This document shows positions 17,991 to 25,586 of a stretch of DNA of 64,000 nucleotides, in pieces; the stretch's first letter is position 1; every line of letters begins with the position of its first letter. Below the pieces are notes generated by a model. The model was not told the DNA's origin and did not search any database. It saw nothing but the letters and a program-made list of their open reading frames with translations. The translations under genes and the position numbers were made by a program. Origin of the DNA: a bacterium (GTDB lineage Bacteria > UBA8248); the NCBI GenBank assembly GCA_965261085.1, contig OZ253442.1, positions 256,001-320,000 of the forward strand, written 5' to 3'.

Positions 17991-19811
17991 CTGAGACTGT
18001 GAAAGTATCGACCCTCGTAGTCTCCAGAACGGGGCTCGCTTACGCTTGCAGCCGGCAGGCCGATGGCCGGACACTGTCATCAACCAGGGGAGCAACAACA
18101 CCGCAGAACCGGGAGAGAATCGCCTCGGCGGCCGAGCAGTTCGGGGTCGCGGTCAAGTCTTCGGGGAATCGGGGTCAAGTTCACACGCCAATTGTCCCCA
18201 ACCGCTGTTTTTGCAGACAATACTCCGCAAATGCAGCTTCGCCCAACACATTCATTACCTGCTTGAAGTTGTAACCCAGCGTCATCAGGCTGAATTCGCC
18301 GCGGCACTTGCCGAGTCCGCGCATCAGAAAATGCTCCATCCCCGCCCAGCGCCTGAGTGTACCGAACGGATGCTCGACGAGTTCGCGTCGCCCGCGCATC
18401 AACGGCGCATCGGCGCTCATCTTCCTGCGATGCCGGTCCACCACGTCCTCATGCTCCCAGCGCTGTATCCTGCGCGTCGATCTCGACTTCGCCAGGCATC
18501 GACCCGACAACGAACAATCCCGACAAACAGCCGCCGTCCCGCGATAAATGAAATACAACTTGCCCTTGTTGATTGCCGAGCCGCCTCTTGCCAGCCGCTC
18601 TCCGGCCGGACAGACATACGTGTCATCCTGCGCATCGTAACGGAAATCATCGGCGCCGAATCGCCCGTCCCTGCCCTTGCGGACCGCATGGTCCGGTATC
18701 GAAACATACGCCTCCATGCCCTTCTCTTCGCAACTCTTCAACCCGGCACCGTTGAAATAGCCCGAATCCGCCAGACCCACCAGGCCTTTGCTGCCCATGG
18801 CTTCGCGGGACTTCGTCATCATCGGCTCCAACTGAGCGGAGTCATTGCCGTCCTGCACCACATCCTCCGCGACAATCAGCTTGTGCCTGTCGTCCACCGC
18901 GATTTGACAGTTGTATCCGCCCACCATCTTGCCCTTCTTTATCAGCAACCGCGCATCGTCATCGACCTCGGATACCTGACCCTCTCCGCTCTCCAGCAAG
19001 CGCTTTTGCAATGCCTTCTTCTTTTGTTGCCTCTCGACCAGGGCCTCGAGCTTCGACGCCAGTTCCGGATCCTCCGAACCGTCCGCATACTCTTCCGCAT
19101 CCGCCTCGTCCATCTGCCGGTGATACGCCGCAATCTGCTCGTCCAGACGCTTCAGGTATCTTTCCAGGGATACCCTGGTATGGAAGCTGTCCGGATTCGC
19201 ATCGGCCTTCAGATAAGTCCCGTCAATCGCCACCCGGGTGCCGCCCAGAAGTGAGAGTTCGCGGCACAAGAGTACGAACTCCCGGTTGACCGCCCGAAGA
19301 GCAGCCGCATTGTTCTTGCGAAAATCCGCTATCGTCTTGTAGCTCGGCGACGCACCCTGGCACAGCCAGATCACTTCCAGATTGCGCTGCGTCTCGGCTT
19401 CGAGCCGACGCGAACTCCGTACCCGGTGCTGGTAGCCGTACAGATACAGCTTCAGCAGCAGCGCCGGGTCGAACGCCGGCTGACCGGCGCCGCAGTTCGC
19501 TTCGGCATGCTCGAATCCCAGCGCCTGCAGATCCAGCGTGCCGACGAACGCCTCGATCGCGCGCACCGCATTGTGCTCGGACACGTAGTCGTCCAGACAC
19601 GGCGGAAGTAGCATCATCTGGCTTCGGGACTGCACCTCCTGATAACGTCTCTCGGACATGGTGGTGATCCTTTATCTGGTTGTCTCACTCGCTGATAATG
19701 ATAGCATCTACAGACAATCCGGCCTTCATTCGCCATCGTCTCTCACCTGACTCGTTGAATATCCCCTCATCGAGTCGCTCGACGCTCGTGGGAATACTTT
19801 CACAGTCTCAG
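17991..19811 (-). mobile_element. IS1182-family insertion sequence
   Basis: Perfect inverted repeat CTGAGACTGTGAAAGTAT (17991-18008 / 19794-19811) around the transposase; exact ends uncertain by a few bp. Confidence 0.85.
18181..19659 (-). CDS. IS1182-family DDE transposase
   Basis: GQPAFDP.LLLKLYLYGY, SSRRLE, P.YKTIADFRK, IDGT, ADSGY, CPAG, VEHPFGTL motifs. Confidence 0.93.
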   Translation of the reverse strand: MSERRYQEVQSRSQMMLLPPCLDDYVSEHNAVRAIEAFVGTLDLQALGFEHAEANCGAGQPAFDPALLLKLYLYGYQHRVRSSRRLEAETQRNLEVIWLCQGASPSYKTIADFRKNNAAALRAVNREFVLLCRELSLLGGTRVAIDGTYLKADANPDSFHTRVSLERYLKRLDEQIAAYHRQMDEADAEEYADGSEDPELASKLEALVERQQKKKALQKRLLESGEGQVSEVDDDARLLIKKGKMVGGYNCQIAVDDRHKLIVAEDVVQDGNDSAQLEPMMTKSREAMGSKGLVGLADSGYFNGAGLKSCEEKGMEAYVSIPDHAVRKGRDGRFGADDFRYDAQDDTYVCPAGERLARGGSAINKGKLYFIYRGTAAVCRDCSLSGRCLAKSRSTRRIQRWEHEDVVDRHRRKMSADAPLMRGRRELVEHPFGTLRRWAGMEHFLMRGLGKCRGEFSLMTLGYNFKQVMNVLGEAAFAEYCLQKQRLGTIGV

Positions 19812-20101
19812 ATCGCCTCTGCATCCGAGGCGTCGTTTTTCTGACGTTTAACGTACGCCTTCACATATCGCGGTGGCATGATCTTCACCTCATGGCCGAT
19901 TTCGCCAATCTCGCGGCCCCAATAGTGCGCGTTCCCGCATGCCTCCATCGCGACCCGGCACTGCGGCTGCGATTCTAGAAAACCCAACACCTTCCCCCGC
20001 GTCAGCTTCTTGCGGAACGCGACCGACCCGTCAGGGTTCGCACCGTGAAGTTGAAAACCGTGTTTCGCCAAGTCGATGCCGATGATGTGGACCTGTTTCA
20101 T
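19808..20101 (-). pseudogene. truncated IS110-family transposase (N-terminal DEDD domain only)
   Basis: IIGIDLAK...AMEAC...KND..DAEAI; cut at the IS1182 end; the rest is not seen on the other side. Confidence 0.85.
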
Positions 20102-20310
20102 CTCGCTCCTCCCGCAGGGCGGCAGACCATGTCAACACGCCCAGTTTGATGGCGCCGGGAGGGGCGCAGAAATGCCCCCTCCTACCCGGCCACAAATTTT
20201 GTAAGCATTCGGTCGAGGGGTGATGGTGTCCGCGTAGCTCATTCCGGATAATCGAAGAGATTCCCGTAAGGTGCTGGTAACATCTTCCGGCATGTGGTAA
20301 TCATGTCGGC

Positions 20311-22629
20311 ATGAAGATTTGCACGGAAGCTGTCGAGACGGAGCCGGCGTTGGTCGAGAGGCCGGATGAGCCATGGCCTCATCCCCCCGAGTTGTTCACA
20401 ACCGGAGAGGCGTACTGGCGTTCGCTGTACGAGCGCGAGCGTGCGCGCGCGGAGGCGGCGGAAGCGCGCTGCGAGGAGTTGCGGTGGAAGGAGGTGGATA
20501 CGCGCACGCGGGCGGGTTCGCTGAAGTGGTATCTCGACAACTGCCGGAGGAAGCTTGCCGCGAGCGTCGGGAAGTTGAAGGAAGTCCGCCGCGCGGCGAA
20601 GAAGGACATCCTGGCGCTCGAGGCGGAAGTGGCTCGACAGGAGAAGCTTCTTCGCAAAGCCGGTGTCGAGCCGGGCAAGCGCAGCCCGCTCGCGTCGCTG
20701 CGCAAAGAGGTGGCCCGGTTGCGCAAGGCTCTCTCGGGCGCGTTGCCTCCGGGGGAGGCCGCGCGGCTGCGCAGAGTCGTGGAGAAGCGGGAGAATACGA
20801 TCGAGTCTCTGCGCAAGGAGATTGAGGGGCGGGAGGAGGCGCTCGCCCGGCTGAAGAATCGGCTGGCCTGGGAGAAGCTGGAGACGAAGTCTCAGAAGAA
20901 GACGGTCCAGTGGCGTGACGAGGAGGTCATCCGGCTCTGCGGGAAGTTGCGGGAATTGCGTGACGATTTGCGGGTCTCCCTCAGGGCCGCGGACGTCGCG
21001 AAGGAACGGCTGAAGGAGCGGTTGTTGCGCGCGAAGGAGGCGTTGCGCTCGAGGTCGCCGTCTCGTTCGGACGCGGAACTTCGCAAGGCCCTGGGGAGGT
21101 CGCGGCGTCAGAAGACGGCGCTCAGGTCCCTCTCCAGGGAGAACGGGCGGTTGTGCCGTGCGCTTCGCAAGTCGGAGACCCACAGGGCGCGGCTGGAGGC
21201 CGAGCTCGCGAAGCTTCGCGCCACCGGAGCGGTGCTGGCGAGAAGGCTGTTCGGGCGCGGGAGCGAACGACAGGAGAGGCCACGCTCGGAGCGCAGGCGC
21301 GGCGGGCAGCCCGGCGCCCAAGGCCATGGCCGCACCCCGCGGCCCGCGCTCGGGGAGAGGACCGAAGTTCGCAACCCGCCGGCCAGCGCGCGCGTCTGCG
21401 CCGGTTGCGGGCAGCCCTACGTGGCGAACGGCGCACGCATGTCGAGCATCGTCGAGATCGAAGTCTCGGCCTACAGGCGGGTCATACGCCGTCCGAGGTG
21501 GCGCCGGGTGTGCGCGTGCGCGTCGTCTCCCATGGAAGTGTCGGCGCCGCCTGCGCCGCGCCTGTTTGCGGGCACGTCTTACGGGACGAGCGTCTGGGCG
21601 CGCCTGCTGTTCGAGCGCTACGCCTGCTTCCGCCCACTCAACCGGGTCGCCGCGTGGCTCTCCGACCAGGGACTTCCGGTCTCCGCGGGCACGCTGGGCG
21701 ACAGCACACACCGCTTCACGCCGCTGTTCGAGCCGCTGGCCCGGGCGATCCTCGCCCGCCAGAACGAGGCGGCGGTGCGCCATGGGGACGAGACGACGTG
21801 GCGCGTACAGTCGCTTCGCGAGCAAGGACGCTCGAGCCGCGCCTGGCTGTGGGCCTCGGTAAGCACAGACTCCGTCTACTTCCACGTCGACCCCTCGAGG
21901 AGCGCCGATGTCGCGATGAAGCTGTTCGGCGCGGCCGGCCCCCATACAGTCATCGTCTGCGACCGCTACAGCGCCTACAAGAAGCTGGCGCGCGAACTCG
22001 ACGGCGCCGTGAGTCTTGGCTTCTGCTGGAGCCACGTTCGGCGCGATTATATCCACTGCGCCGCCGGCGATGCGCGGCTGACGTCGTGGTGTGAGAGATG
22101 GATCGGGCGGATTGCGCTGCTCTACCGCCTGAACGAGGCGCGCCTGGCCCGTTACGACTCAGGCTTCGAACGCCAGGACGCGGCGTTCGAAGCGGCGCAG
22201 GCCGCGCTCAAGAAGGCGCTCGATAGCCTGTTCGCGCAGGCCCGACGGGAACTGTCGGCCCTGCCGGCGCAGGTGCGCGAGGGCAAGGCGCTTCGCTCAC
22301 TGCTGAACCACCGCGAAGGGCTGAGCGTCTTCGTCGAGCGCCCCTCGGTGCCAATGGATAATAACGCCGTCGAGCGCGCGCTTAGGGGACCGGTGATCGG
22401 GAGGCGGCTCTCGTTCGGCTCCGTGAGTGAGGCCGGCGCCAGGTTCTCGGCGATGATGTACTCGGTCCTCGGCACCCTCGCGTCGAACGGCATCGACCCG
22501 CTCCGCTGGCTGGAGGCATGGCTCACGGCCTGCGCGGAGAACGGCGACCGGGCGCCCGGGGACCTCTCCGCGTGGCTGCCCTGGTCGATGAATGAGGAGC
22601 GCAGGCGCGCCCTCATGGCGCCGGGATGA
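20311..22629 (+). CDS. IS66-family transposase (TnpC) with long N-terminal coiled coil
   Basis: LFGRGSE, GGQPG..GHGR, CxxC zinc finger, HGDETTW, CDRYSAY, CWSHVRR, DNNAVERALR motifs. Confidence 0.92.
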   Translation: MKICTEAVETEPALVERPDEPWPHPPELFTTGEAYWRSLYERERARAEAAEARCEELRWKEVDTRTRAGSLKWYLDNCRRKLAASVGKLKEVRRAAKKDILALEAEVARQEKLLRKAGVEPGKRSPLASLRKEVARLRKALSGALPPGEAARLRRVVEKRENTIESLRKEIEGREEALARLKNRLAWEKLETKSQKKTVQWRDEEVIRLCGKLRELRDDLRVSLRAADVAKERLKERLLRAKEALRSRSPSRSDAELRKALGRSRRQKTALRSLSRENGRLCRALRKSETHRARLEAELAKLRATGAVLARRLFGRGSERQERPRSERRRGGQPGAQGHGRTPRPALGERTEVRNPPASARVCAGCGQPYVANGARMSSIVEIEVSAYRRVIRRPRWRRVCACASSPMEVSAPPAPRLFAGTSYGTSVWARLLFERYACFRPLNRVAAWLSDQGLPVSAGTLGDSTHRFTPLFEPLARAILARQNEAAVRHGDETTWRVQSLREQGRSSRAWLWASVSTDSVYFHVDPSRSADVAMKLFGAAGPHTVIVCDRYSAYKKLARELDGAVSLGFCWSHVRRDYIHCAAGDARLTSWCERWIGRIALLYRLNEARLARYDSGFERQDAAFEAAQAALKKALDSLFAQARRELSALPAQVREGKALRSLLNHREGLSVFVERPSVPMDNNAVERALRGPVIGRRLSFGSVSEAGARFSAMMYSVLGTLASNGIDPLRWLEAWLTACAENGDRAPGDLSAWLPWSMNEERRRALMAPG

Positions 22630-22633
22630 CGCC

Positions 22634-23506
22634 GTGACCGAGTGCCGCTACTACGGGCGCGACTTCACGACGGAAGAGATGGCGCTGCTGCGCGCGCTGA
22701 TCGCAGGCTCTCCTGCGCTCAACCGCCATGCGCTCTCGAAGGAGTTCTGCCGCCGCATCGGCTGGTACAAGCCCGACGGCGGACTCAAGGACATGATGGC
22801 ACGGGTGACCATGCTCGCCATGGACAAGGACGGCCTGATCACGCTCCCCCCGCCGATGCGGCCACGCCACGCGGCTCGGCCAATCGTCTTCGGACCCGAC
22901 ACCGAAGCGCCTCTCATCCCGTCGCCGACCACCCTCGATGAGGTCCGCCCCATCGGGATGCGCATCGTCGTGCGCGGAACCCGCGAGGGCCAGCTCTGGA
23001 ACGAGTTCGTCGCCCGCTACCACTACCTCGGTTACAAGACCCTCGTCGGCGCACAGATGCGCTACGCCGTCCACGACCGCGACGGCAGGCCCCTCGCCAT
23101 GCTCGGCTTCTCCACCGCCGCGTGGAAGCTCGCCCCGCGCGACAGCTTCATCGGCTGGACGCCCAAGCTGCGTGAGAAGAACCTCCCCTTCGTGGTCGAC
23201 AACCCGAGGTTCCTCATCCTGCCATGGATCAAAATCCCCAACCTCGGCTCGCACCTCCTCGCCATCATCCGCAGGCGCCTGCCCGGGGACTGGACCGAAC
23301 GCTATGGCGTCACCCCCGTGCTCGTCGAGACCTTCGTCGAAACGCCCCGCTACACCGGAGCCGTCTACAGGGCATCGGGATGGATTCCCGTTGGAACCAC
23401 CCAGGGACGAGGGCGCTACGACAGGGACAGACGCTACGACAAGCCCAAAAAGGACGTCTGGCTAAGGCCGCTCCGCAGCAACTGGAAGCAAGTCCTCAGC
23501 CGCTGA
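22634..23506 (+). CDS. DUF4338-family (Druantia DruA-related) protein
   Basis: GTG start 22634; LWNEFVARYHYLGY, GAQMRY, RDSFIGW, RFLILPW, PNLGSHLL, ETFVE...G.VYRASGW..VG.TQGRGR motifs. Confidence 0.85.
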   Translation: MTECRYYGRDFTTEEMALLRALIAGSPALNRHALSKEFCRRIGWYKPDGGLKDMMARVTMLAMDKDGLITLPPPMRPRHAARPIVFGPDTEAPLIPSPTTLDEVRPIGMRIVVRGTREGQLWNEFVARYHYLGYKTLVGAQMRYAVHDRDGRPLAMLGFSTAAWKLAPRDSFIGWTPKLREKNLPFVVDNPRFLILPWIKIPNLGSHLLAIIRRRLPGDWTERYGVTPVLVETFVETPRYTGAVYRASGWIPVGTTQGRGRYDRDRRYDKPKKDVWLRPLRSNWKQVLSR

Positions 23507-23550
23507 AACAAACCCCATCACCCCTCGACCGAATGTGTATGGACGCGCCC

Positions 23551-23806
23551 CAAAATGCAAGCTTTTTCTTCGGACAGTTCGGCGCAATGTGGTCAGGCGC
23601 AGTCGTGTATTCGGCCTCTAGATTGCGGCGTTTCCCTCTTGCCACGGGCCCGTATGGAGATGCGCGGATCGGGTCCGAATCGCTTACGCGAGCTTGAAAG
23701 CTCTCCATTCAGGTCCTGGTTTTCCCGATCCCGTCTCATTGACCGTATGCCCCTTACCTGTCCTCCGACCTGCTCACATTCCCGGCATTATCCGCTCGCC
23801 TGCCGC
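23551..23806 (-). ncRNA. putative seekRNA/bridge-type guide RNA region of the IS1111 element
   Basis: Position 3' of tnp as in IS1111 elements; contains GTAAGCGATTCGG (23687-23675), matching target GTAAGC|ATTCGG with one extra base. Confidence 0.6.
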
Positions 23807-24832
23807 TCAGGCGGCCGGCACCGGCTCCTTGTAGACCTCTTTTTTCGTCATCAGCGCCCAGGCGATGCGCGCCATCCTGTTGGCCAGCGCCACCGCGACC
23901 AGCATACGCGGCTTTCGCGCCAGCATCCGGGCCAGCCATGAGCCCGGCGGAGCGCCGCGCCGGACCGCCCAGCGCACCACCGTCATCGCGCCTATGATCA
24001 ACAACCGCCTGACGTCGCGCTGGCCCATCTTCGATATCCTGCCCAGCCGGGGCTTGCCACCGGTGGAGTGCTGCCGCGGGACGAGCCCGAGCCAGGCGGA
24101 GAAGTCGCGACCGCGCCGGAAGCTTTCCATCGGCGGCGCGAAGGCCTGGATCGCCATCGCCCCGATCGCCCCGATCCCCGGTATGCTCATCAGGCGCCTC
24201 GCCTCCTCGTCTTGGCGCGCACTCGCGAGAAGTTGCCTCTCCAACTCCCCGATCTTCGCATTGAGGCCGGCGATCTGATCGAGCAGAACCCCGCCCAGAT
24301 CGCGGACCGCCTCGGGCAGGCCCAAGCCCGGATCTGCAACGGCCGACGCCAGCCGCGCGACATGGGCGGGACCCTGGGGAGCAACGACGCCGAACTCCGC
24401 CAGATGGCCGCGCAGCGCGTTGATCGTCTGGGTGCGCTGTCGCACCAGCAAATCGCGCGTGCGGAACAGCATCCCTCGGGCCTGCTGCTCTTCAGTCTTC
24501 ACGGCCACGAAGTGCATGGTCGGGCGAGAGGCCGACTCGCAGATCGCCTCCGCATCAGCCTCGTCGTTCTTGTGGCGCTTGACGAAGGGTTTCACGTAGA
24601 TCGGCGGGATAAGCTTCACCTCATGGCCGAGCTTGCCGATCTCACGCCCCCAGTAGTGCGCGCTCGCACATGCCTCCATCGCCACCAGGCACCGCGGCTG
24701 CGAAGCCAGAAAGCCCAACACCTTCGCCCTGGTAAGCTTCTTCCGGAACGCGACCGATCCGTCCGGGCGCGTGCCGTGGAGTTGAAAGCTCTGTTTTGCC
24801 AGATCGATGCCGATGATGTGAACCTGTTCCAT
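23807..24832 (-). CDS. IS110-family recombinase/transposase
   Basis: Start ATG 24832; IGIDLAK, MEAC, KND..DAEAI, SIPGIG, WLGLVPRQHSTGGK..LGRISKMG. Confidence 0.95.
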   Translation of the reverse strand: MEQVHIIGIDLAKQSFQLHGTRPDGSVAFRKKLTRAKVLGFLASQPRCLVAMEACASAHYWGREIGKLGHEVKLIPPIYVKPFVKRHKNDEADAEAICESASRPTMHFVAVKTEEQQARGMLFRTRDLLVRQRTQTINALRGHLAEFGVVAPQGPAHVARLASAVADPGLGLPEAVRDLGGVLLDQIAGLNAKIGELERQLLASARQDEEARRLMSIPGIGAIGAMAIQAFAPPMESFRRGRDFSAWLGLVPRQHSTGGKPRLGRISKMGQRDVRRLLIIGAMTVVRWAVRRGAPPGSWLARMLARKPRMLVAVALANRMARIAWALMTKKEVYKEPVPAA

Positions 24833-24924
24833 GGATTCCCCTCCTGCAGGGCGGTAACGACACCACCTCACCACAGTGTGATGCCTTCGGGAGGGCGCGT
24901 CCATCCCATCGCTTACCAAATTTT

Positions 24925-25080
24925 CGGACACATATACACCAGGATGCGCAGAGGTTTTAATGAATCCGCTTTCGGTTTGATTACGGCCTGCGGCAGGAGA
25001 ATTCCAACAGGTATGGACAGGTCTAATATCTGACATAATATCAATAGGTTATATGGATTCTGCCGACGATGAAAAAGGCC
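24925..25080 (+). repeat. dispersed ~150-bp element, copy 4
   Basis: Core CGCTTTCGGTTTGATTAC at 24967; perfect IHF consensus TATCAATAGGTTA 25039-25051; TGAAAA at +103. Confidence 0.6.
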
Positions 25081-25398
25081 CGAAACATCCAATGCACCTG
25101 ATTTATCGAAAAACCCCGTGAATTTATCGATATTTATCGTATTTTTCAGAAATTATTATTTGCATAAAATGGCGTTTCATCACTTCCGAACGAGCCCAGC
25201 CATCTTGTTCCACTTCGAACCGAAAAGCATCCCCGCTTCGTCGTCGCCTCACGCTTGGTAGTAACGATCATCCTCTTCACTCCACCTCGGAGTCACCCGG
25301 AATCAGAACCGGCGAAAGCGCCGCTTCGGGTGAGCGCGCCATTCCAGATTCCAGGATTTCACGCTCACGGCAAATGCGGTGTAGAACCCGACCAAGCA

Positions 25399-25586
25399 GG
25401 GCTGTTGAAAAAGTCCTGATTTCGTGCTTTGGCGAATGGTACCAACCGGGCAAGGGTTCCGTAGGGACAGGCCCCCGTGCCTGTCCGAGGTCGCTACGAG
25501 GCGGTGCGGCTTTGTTCGTCATTCCGGCGAAAGCCGGAATGACGGCGGTGGTCAATTCCGAGCGAGGAGGGGTTTTTCCAACTACC
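25399..25586. repeat. MITE-like unit with IS1182-like ends enclosing two REP-like hairpins
   Basis: GGGCTGTTGAAAAAGTCC left end; GTAG-GGACAGGC..GCCTGTCC hairpin; CGTCATTCCGGC-GAAA-GCCGGAATGACG hairpin; degenerate right end GGGGTTTTTCCAACTACC. Confidence 0.5.

Follow-up and report, generated by a model that had tools for sequence, protein, structure and literature searches.

An IS1111-family element with a predicted guide RNA lies within the terminal inverted repeat of an IS66-family insertion sequence

A nested pair of insertion sequences

The 64,000-nt stretch of contig OZ253442.1 analysed here (the window) carries an IS66-family insertion sequence (IS) whose right terminal inverted repeat (IR) is split, 5 bp from its tip, by a second element, a 1376-bp IS1111-family insert on the minus strand (23536-24911). 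An earlier reading of the letters alone (the sequence-only reading) had placed an IS1111-type insert exactly within the terminal IR of an IS66 and had claimed that deletion of 23535-24910 restores a perfect 26-bp IR together with an 8-bp duplication, and both statements were confirmed in the sequence. Upon in-silico removal of 23535-24910, positions 23515-23534 are joined to 24911-24916 and give the exact reverse complement of the 26-bp left IR, and the 8-bp CAAATTTT found before the left IR (20193-20200) is found again after the right one (24917-24924). The boundary of the insert is ambiguous by one shared C, which leaves 20 or 21 bases in the inner part of the IR and, respectively, 6 or 5 in the outer part. 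IS1111 elements are conventionally delimited so that the extension measures 7 bp at the left end and 3 bp at the right (PMC11187229); on this basis the insert was set at 23536-24911, with the cut after the fifth base of the IR. The features of the locus are as follows (window coordinates, strand, description, and basis in brackets):

20193-20200, no strand: left copy of the 8-bp target-site duplication of the IS66 element (same 8 bases at 24917-24924)
20201-20226, plus: left terminal IR of the IS66 element, 26 bp; intact and an unoccupied IS1111 target (uninterrupted 12-mer target)
20311-22629, plus: IS66-family transposase, 772 aa, with a long N-terminal extension (PF03050, NF033517)
22592-23506, plus: DruA-like (DUF4338) open reading frame (ORF) inside the IS66 element, 304 aa (PF14236, 1.3e-36)
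23510-23535, minus: inner 21 bp of the IS66 right IR (23515-23535) with adjacent bases, forming the right flank of the insert (inverted-repeat analysis)
23536-24911, minus: IS1111-family insertion sequence, 1376 bp, ends by family convention (4 genome copies, 100% identity)
23536-23562, minus: right end of the insert, with GCTTGCAT (23562-23555), sub-terminal IR (23550-23539) and 3-bp extension (23538-23536) (alignment, end analysis)
23603-23610, minus: donor segment, the last 5 right-end and first 3 left-end bases, as in the circle junction (62/65 loci)
23663-23735, minus: predicted seekRNA core or target-binding loop, made up of an outer stem, an internal loop and a central hairpin (consensus fold from 26 relatives)
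23666-23681, minus: conserved scaffold directly 3' of the B block, including ATTCGG (kept in relatives with unrelated targets)
23682-23687, minus: left-flank guide, or B block, a same-sense copy of the final 5 flank bases and the shared C (changes together with the left flank)
23706-23715, minus: right-flank guide, or T block, complementary to the IR top strand just inside the cut (varies with the right flank)
23807-24835, minus: DEDD (IS110/IS1111) transposase, 342 aa (PF01548, PF02371, NF033542)
24893-24911, minus: left end of the insert, with 7-bp extension (24911-24905) and 12-bp sub-terminal IR (24904-24893) (partner IR at 23550-23539)
24912-24916, minus: outermost 5 bp of the IS66 right IR, severed by the insert (sequence)
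24917-24924, no strand: right copy of the 8-bp target-site duplication (sequence)

Identity of the insert and of its host

The insert is a member of the IS1111 family, which ISfinder places within IS110, and the length of its transposase falls inside the 330-350 aa of the family criterion. This 342-aa protein, encoded on the minus strand, matches PF01548 (1.8e-15), PF02371 (5.7e-22) and, at 5.5e-96, the model NF033542 (‘IS110 family RNA-guided transposase’); its closest solved structures are those of ISCro4 (9t56) and IS621 (8wt6), and the C-terminal IS1111 motif GL-P----S(t)G is present in the alignment as GLVPRQHSTG. The 12-bp sub-terminal IRs (24904-24893 and 23550-23539) are within the 11-13 bp of the family, and beyond them, once the ambiguous C is given to the left end, the left extension measures 7 bp and the right one 3 bp; terminal extensions of these lengths define the IS1111 family (PMC11187229). 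Non-coding DNA amounts to 272 nt past the transposase stop vs 75 nt ahead of its start. All four copies of the insert in the genome (4/4) occupy one target in one orientation without target duplication, the single shared C being ambiguous. The IS1111-type identity proposed by the sequence-only reading is thus upheld by the Pfam and NF033542 matches, the 12-bp sub-terminal IR and the 272-nt 3' non-coding region (NCR). The conserved GCTTGCAT near the right end may possibly serve as the -35 element of a circle-junction promoter, by analogy with PMC11187229.

The 772-aa transposase of the host matches PF03050 at 2.2e-56 over residues 422-711 and NF033517 at 5e-83 over residues 333-740, in agreement with the IS66 host named earlier, and it carries some 330 additional residues at its N terminus. 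Members of the IS66 family have terminal IRs beginning with GTAA and an 8-bp target duplication, and canonical ones carry two accessory genes, tnpA and tnpB, before the transposase start. At the host we found the 26-bp IR, and 8-bp duplications at three full-length copies and at one miniature inverted-repeat transposable element (MITE). Because the stretch from the left IR to the transposase start contains no ORF of at least 60 aa, and hence no candidate for tnpA or tnpB (the Pfam scan between the IRs covered, and matched, only the transposase and the DruA-like ORF), the host is, judged by its sequence, a non-canonical IS66 member, like the single-ORF subgroups. Its second gene is the DruA-like ORF (DUF4338, Druantia-type), 100% identical in the second IS66 copy of the genome and 91% in the third; the pair of transposase and DruA-like gene is common to all three copies.

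Copies and target sites in the genome

The genome examined, a single contig of 4.27 Mb, contains the insert four times at 100% identity, besides seven partial or diverged matches. The four full copies share both insertion base and orientation: the five bases to their left are identical, as is the repeat interior to their right, and in each the transposase start faces away from the IS66 body. One copy splits the window IS66, two occupy both ends of a second IS66, and one lies in a 235-bp IS66-derived MITE. The second IS66 has its own 8-bp duplication and is 100% identical to the window copy, with the genes intact in both. Of the underlying insertion events, at least three took place in the two full-length IS66 copies, whose 8-bp duplications differ, and one in the MITE.

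The 12-mer target is present at six sites in the genome, all of them IS66-type IRs, of which four are filled and two empty. Uninterrupted, it was found only twice in the 4.27 Mb: in the left IR of the window element and in an intact sister of the 235-bp MITE, at genome 3722726-3722960 and with its own 8-bp duplication. Since four identical copies share the same IR flanks and orientation, and the 12-mer is confined to IS66-type IRs, the position of the insert is not due to chance, and the specificity for IS66-type IRs claimed earlier holds for 4/4 copies in this genome. Sites with C for G at the base before the cut are empty in all three cases, a number too small for a test, and the third IS66 copy (86% identical), which has a different repeat, is not invaded. 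None of 23 sequencing runs containing the stretch is recorded as RNA. Short unitigs from four of these runs span both junctions; none of them skips the insert and none shows the circle junction, a result that bears neither for nor against activity, empty sites or circles.

Guide blocks in the non-coding region

Relatives of the insert were drawn from the best 80 of 350 stretches encoding a related transposase, which gave 79 loci (numbered with an L below), from many uncultured bacteria, with transposases 75-85% identical. Together with the four own copies these made 83 loci, of which 65 had both ends and the NCR recognisable and 18 were skipped; the 65 usable loci fall into 28 guide types and stem from 53 distinct insertion events. 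The 3' NCRs of 26 representatives align at 76% mean column identity, except for two short blocks. The T block, which directly follows the conserved AAAACCAG and is found at 23715-23706 in the window element, was compared with the reverse complement of the right flank of its own locus, and the mean longest run was 5.57 vs 2.86 in 2412 cross-pairings between guides and flanks that do not belong together. The B block, directly preceding a conserved GA(T) and reading GTAAGC at 23687-23682 in the window element, repeats its own left flank as far as the shared base, this base included, with a mean anchored match of 5.60, vs 0.67 when cross-paired. Both blocks therefore change with the flanks across relatives, as expected from the flank-matching guides that the sequence-only reading had placed in the NCR.

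The first three bases of the scaffold that follows the B block (GAT) match the left end of the insert itself, so that B block plus GAT spells the left junction, which is the exact left-junction match noted earlier; we take this arrangement to resemble the handshake extension of bridge RNAs. Further downstream, the segment 23610-23603 is identical to the circle junction in 62/65 loci, across seven different junction sequences, and on these grounds we regard it as the donor-reading segment. No second donor guide complementary to the left end was found that covaries.

In the consensus fold predicted by RNAalifold for the 26 representatives, both blocks fall in a single internal loop, the T block in its 5' arm and the B block in its 3' arm; this loop is closed by an 8-bp stem and carries a small hairpin in its middle. 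For the five named helices, 98.2% of cells pair, vs 19-47% when the partners are slid by 1-3 columns; the modelled fold of the guide RNA is conserved, with modest covariation. The fold of the single window sequence was no better than those of its shuffles (z -1.59), and in it the T block tends to pair with the scaffold.

Targets of the relatives

Several relatives reside in comparable targets. L080 occupies the left IR of a 2.5-kb IS66 of canonical type (PF03050, zf-IS66 and LZ domains) with its own 8-bp duplication, and L032 and L056 lie in IR-bounded elements of 468 and 129 bp, respectively, with the same type of terminus. A search for partner IRs in the right flanks of 47 distinct sites gave credible results only for the own copies, L032, L056 and L080. 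Three further candidates, with 6 mismatches of 24, were discounted. Among 42 right-flank ORFs from 14 loci with GTAA-type left guides, Pfam identified an IS66 transposase only in L080, the others being Mutator, IS1595, IS630-type, Mu, IS21 or ordinary genes, and tblastn of the window IS66 and DruA-like proteins against the 79 foreign loci returned few matches. DruA-like fragments were observed to adjoin L032, L049 and L063.

The commonest relative (L021-L036, all from one genome) has the left guide GTAACC, one base different from that of the window element, and occupies 12 distinct sites. These 12 sites of a single guide pair have only five left-flank and 2-7 right-flank bases in common, which suggests a low stringency on the right side. 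IS66 targeting is thus general only in part within the clade of the insert. The sequence-only reading had raised the prospect that homologues would consistently be flanked by IS66 IRs and that 23675-23687 would vary with the flanks; the segment 23682-23687 does covary with the left flank, whereas ATTCGG is near-identical across the family and IS66 flanks were detected in some relatives only.

Other guide types have different destinations. Some target a REP-like palindrome, while others are self-directed, being aimed at the region just upstream of the seekRNA (L019, L026; at about 3925 there), at the right sub-terminal repeat (L042, L051) or at the donor segment (L052); the transposase gene of a relative lies directly upstream of the self-targeted sites L019, L026, L042 and L052. 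The guide pair of one relative fits the IR of the 86% IS66 copy in the genome studied here, which is untouched by the resident element.

Two observations concern how guides may be shared or changed. The flanks of L086 and L087 suit the L088-type guides better than their own (all from one genome, together with L088 and L090), and seekRNA may be used in trans between co-resident elements. In the NCR of L059, the hairpin and left-guide module are duplicated in tandem with one base changed, a possible route for the emergence of new guides.

Surroundings of the elements

A 5' fragment of a related IS1111-type element, 78% identical, is located in the window at 19806-20163 on the minus strand; it covers query positions 16-374 and contains a 97-aa N-terminal ORF. 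It lies approx. 40 bp from the left repeat of the IS66, which accordingly inserted right next to an older relative of the element that invaded it. Nested IS66-type MITEs were detected at genome 2515049-2515394 and 1192605-1192723. A 235-bp MITE lies within the last 8 bp of a 115-bp MITE, at whose other end the 3' remnant of a 78% IS1111 relative stands at the equivalent position of the repeat.

A repeat of 120-195 bp, in the window at about 24940-25135 and elsewhere at genome 1871992-1872178, 3699634-3699807, 1192738-1192859 and 2516797-2516915, is situated just beyond the termini of IS66 copies, of IS66-type MITEs and of an IS1111 relic, at no fewer than five places, and may be a preferred landing zone. 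A separate repeat of 35-54 bp (window about 25101-25154) occurs some 80 times in the genome.

Interpretation

We consider it very probable, from the sequence comparisons above, that 23536-24911 is an intact and recently active IS1111 element whose 3' NCR encodes a predicted seekRNA or bridge-type RNA programmed for the outermost bases of IS66-type IRs. In the proposed mechanism, the conserved stem would close the internal loop of the guide RNA; the 5' side of the loop (23715-23706) would complement the IR bases just inside the cut, and its 3' side (23687-23682) would be identical to the five bases that border the cut on the outer side, together with the shared C, and would run into three bases matching the left end of the element. 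The downstream segment 23610-23603 would spell the junction at which right end meets left end in the excised circle. By comparison with the family, the DEDD recombinase loaded with this RNA would pair the circle junction with the IR and recombine at the shared C; the IR would thereby be divided into portions of 5 and 21 bp on opposite sides of the element, with the transposase start always outward.

Several points weigh against this reading. The covariation of the stems is modest, with 5/24 pairs changing on both sides, and an Rfam scan of 19500-25500 returned no family at E<=1. The pairing of the window T block is imperfect, comprising five contiguous Watson-Crick pairs, or seven pairs if one G:U is allowed, or nine if one U bulges out. 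The GTAACC relatives are found mostly in ordinary genes, with partial right-flank matches and no partner IR, and a GTAA-type guide alone therefore does not imply IS66 targeting. Finally, a decayed 90% relative in the same genome (1872201-1873025), which has a perfect 9-mer T block, carries the same guides between flanks that do not fit them. It should be noted that this relic is internally deleted and that its right flank begins inside another repeat, the other eight examined copies of which differ upstream. For these reasons it appears rearranged, and we set it aside as uninformative on specificity.

As to the consequences for the host, the insert displaces five terminal bases of the IR by 1.4 kb from the rest of the repeat. 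A split end would no longer be usable by the IS66 transposase, so that an invaded copy would be stuck, certainly if both its ends are invaded, until precise excision; immobilisation of the IS66 host by the insertion, as proposed in the sequence-only reading, is thus plausible. Another explanation, possible though in our view considerably less probable, keeps the same mechanism and regards the IS66 repeat as a safe, multi-copy and horizontally travelling landing pad. Precise excision restores the repeat, which would bring the relation closer to hitch-hiking or commensalism than to immobilisation. The untouched IS66 genes, identical between copies, fit this explanation, as do the two cognate sites that are still empty and the exit of IS110-type elements as a circle with abutted ends (PMC11187229). 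Against it stand the IS66 copy with both ends split and the removal of the outer 5 bp, terminal bases included, from the remaining repeat.

More speculative, and on balance unlikely, is a wider picture in which the IS1111 clade of the insert forms a network of RNA-programmed hyperparasites, some guide variants being aimed at different IS66 termini and others at the guide-RNA region, the donor segment or the right sub-terminal repeat of their cousins. If guides did track and disable their targets in this way, it would amount to a natural RNA-guided warfare of transposon against transposon, with guide and target co-evolving.

The assignment of the guide in the sequence-only reading requires correction. 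It had proposed the contiguous 13-mer at 23687-23675 (minus strand) as a single guide pairing across the whole target with one looped-out base. The letters are present, both halves match the target on one strand, and the GTAAGC half (23687-23682) does vary with the left flank. However, the ATTCGG half belongs to the scaffold, which is near-identical across the family and identical to the letter in L057, in L052 and in an 85% relative in the own genome, all three with unrelated right flanks. The right flank is instead read by the separate T block, about 20 nt upstream in the RNA (23715-23706), which covaries with it, and in the IS1111 seekRNAs described so far each side of the target is read on a different strand. 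The 13-mer as a single guide is accordingly rejected as highly improbable. Least credible of all is recognition of the IS66 repeat by the transposase protein with incidental RNA matches, which the weak z-score of the single-sequence fold would suit, but transposases 75-85% identical are found at many unrelated targets, both NCR blocks change in step with these targets, and a requirement for seekRNA was shown for four IS1111 members (PMC11187229).

Significance and comparison with known systems

RNA guidance in IS1111/IS110 elements (2024) and landing in the terminal repeats of transposons (IS4321/IS5075) are already known. A literature search by titles and the beginnings of abstracts revealed no report of an IS1111/IS110 element that targets IS66 repeats. 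The RNA-guided reading of the window element extends the habit of landing in end repeats from Tn21-type transposons to the IS66 family and suggests that IS1111-type end invaders may limit the spread of other insertion sequences. A single genome offers here a natural triple of predicted guide RNA, filled targets and empty targets, along with dozens of naturally reprogrammed relatives. The set of relatives provides data on the programmable positions of IS1111 guides and on their mismatch tolerance, of use for the engineering of seekRNA and bridge recombinases.

With the bridge RNA system of IS621 (PMC11208160; 8wt6), the window element shares a DEDD recombinase (PDB match at 2.2e-11), one loop that reads both target strands and a second segment that reads the donor junction. 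IS621 differs in belonging to the IS110 group, with the RNA in the left end, the order of the guides reversed and a very short sub-terminal IR, and the window element has only one donor-matching segment identified. According to Durrant et al., bridge RNAs are predicted at the right end in 93% of IS1111 elements.

ISEc11, ISKpn4, ISPst6 and ISPa11, with seekRNAs of 70-100 nt (PMC11187229), resemble the window element in the 3' NCR, in a top-strand complement placed 5' of a bottom-strand match with an overlap in the target, in a conserved stem with variable guide blocks, and in natural reprogramming between relatives. Their targets are a short linear site, attC sites and REP sequences, whereas the target here is the end of an insertion sequence and the RNA is predicted only.

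IS4321 and IS5075 reportedly, going by the title of Partridge & Hall 2003, target the terminal IRs of Tn21-family transposons. Nearly 900 insertions of these elements at one logo are on record (PMC11187229). Like the window element they are of the IS1111 family, have sub-terminal IRs and occupy one position in one orientation within the terminal IRs of another transposon. The hosts differ, being here an IS66-family insertion sequence and MITEs rather than Tn21-family transposons, and so do the guides and the setting, which is that of uncultured environmental bacteria.

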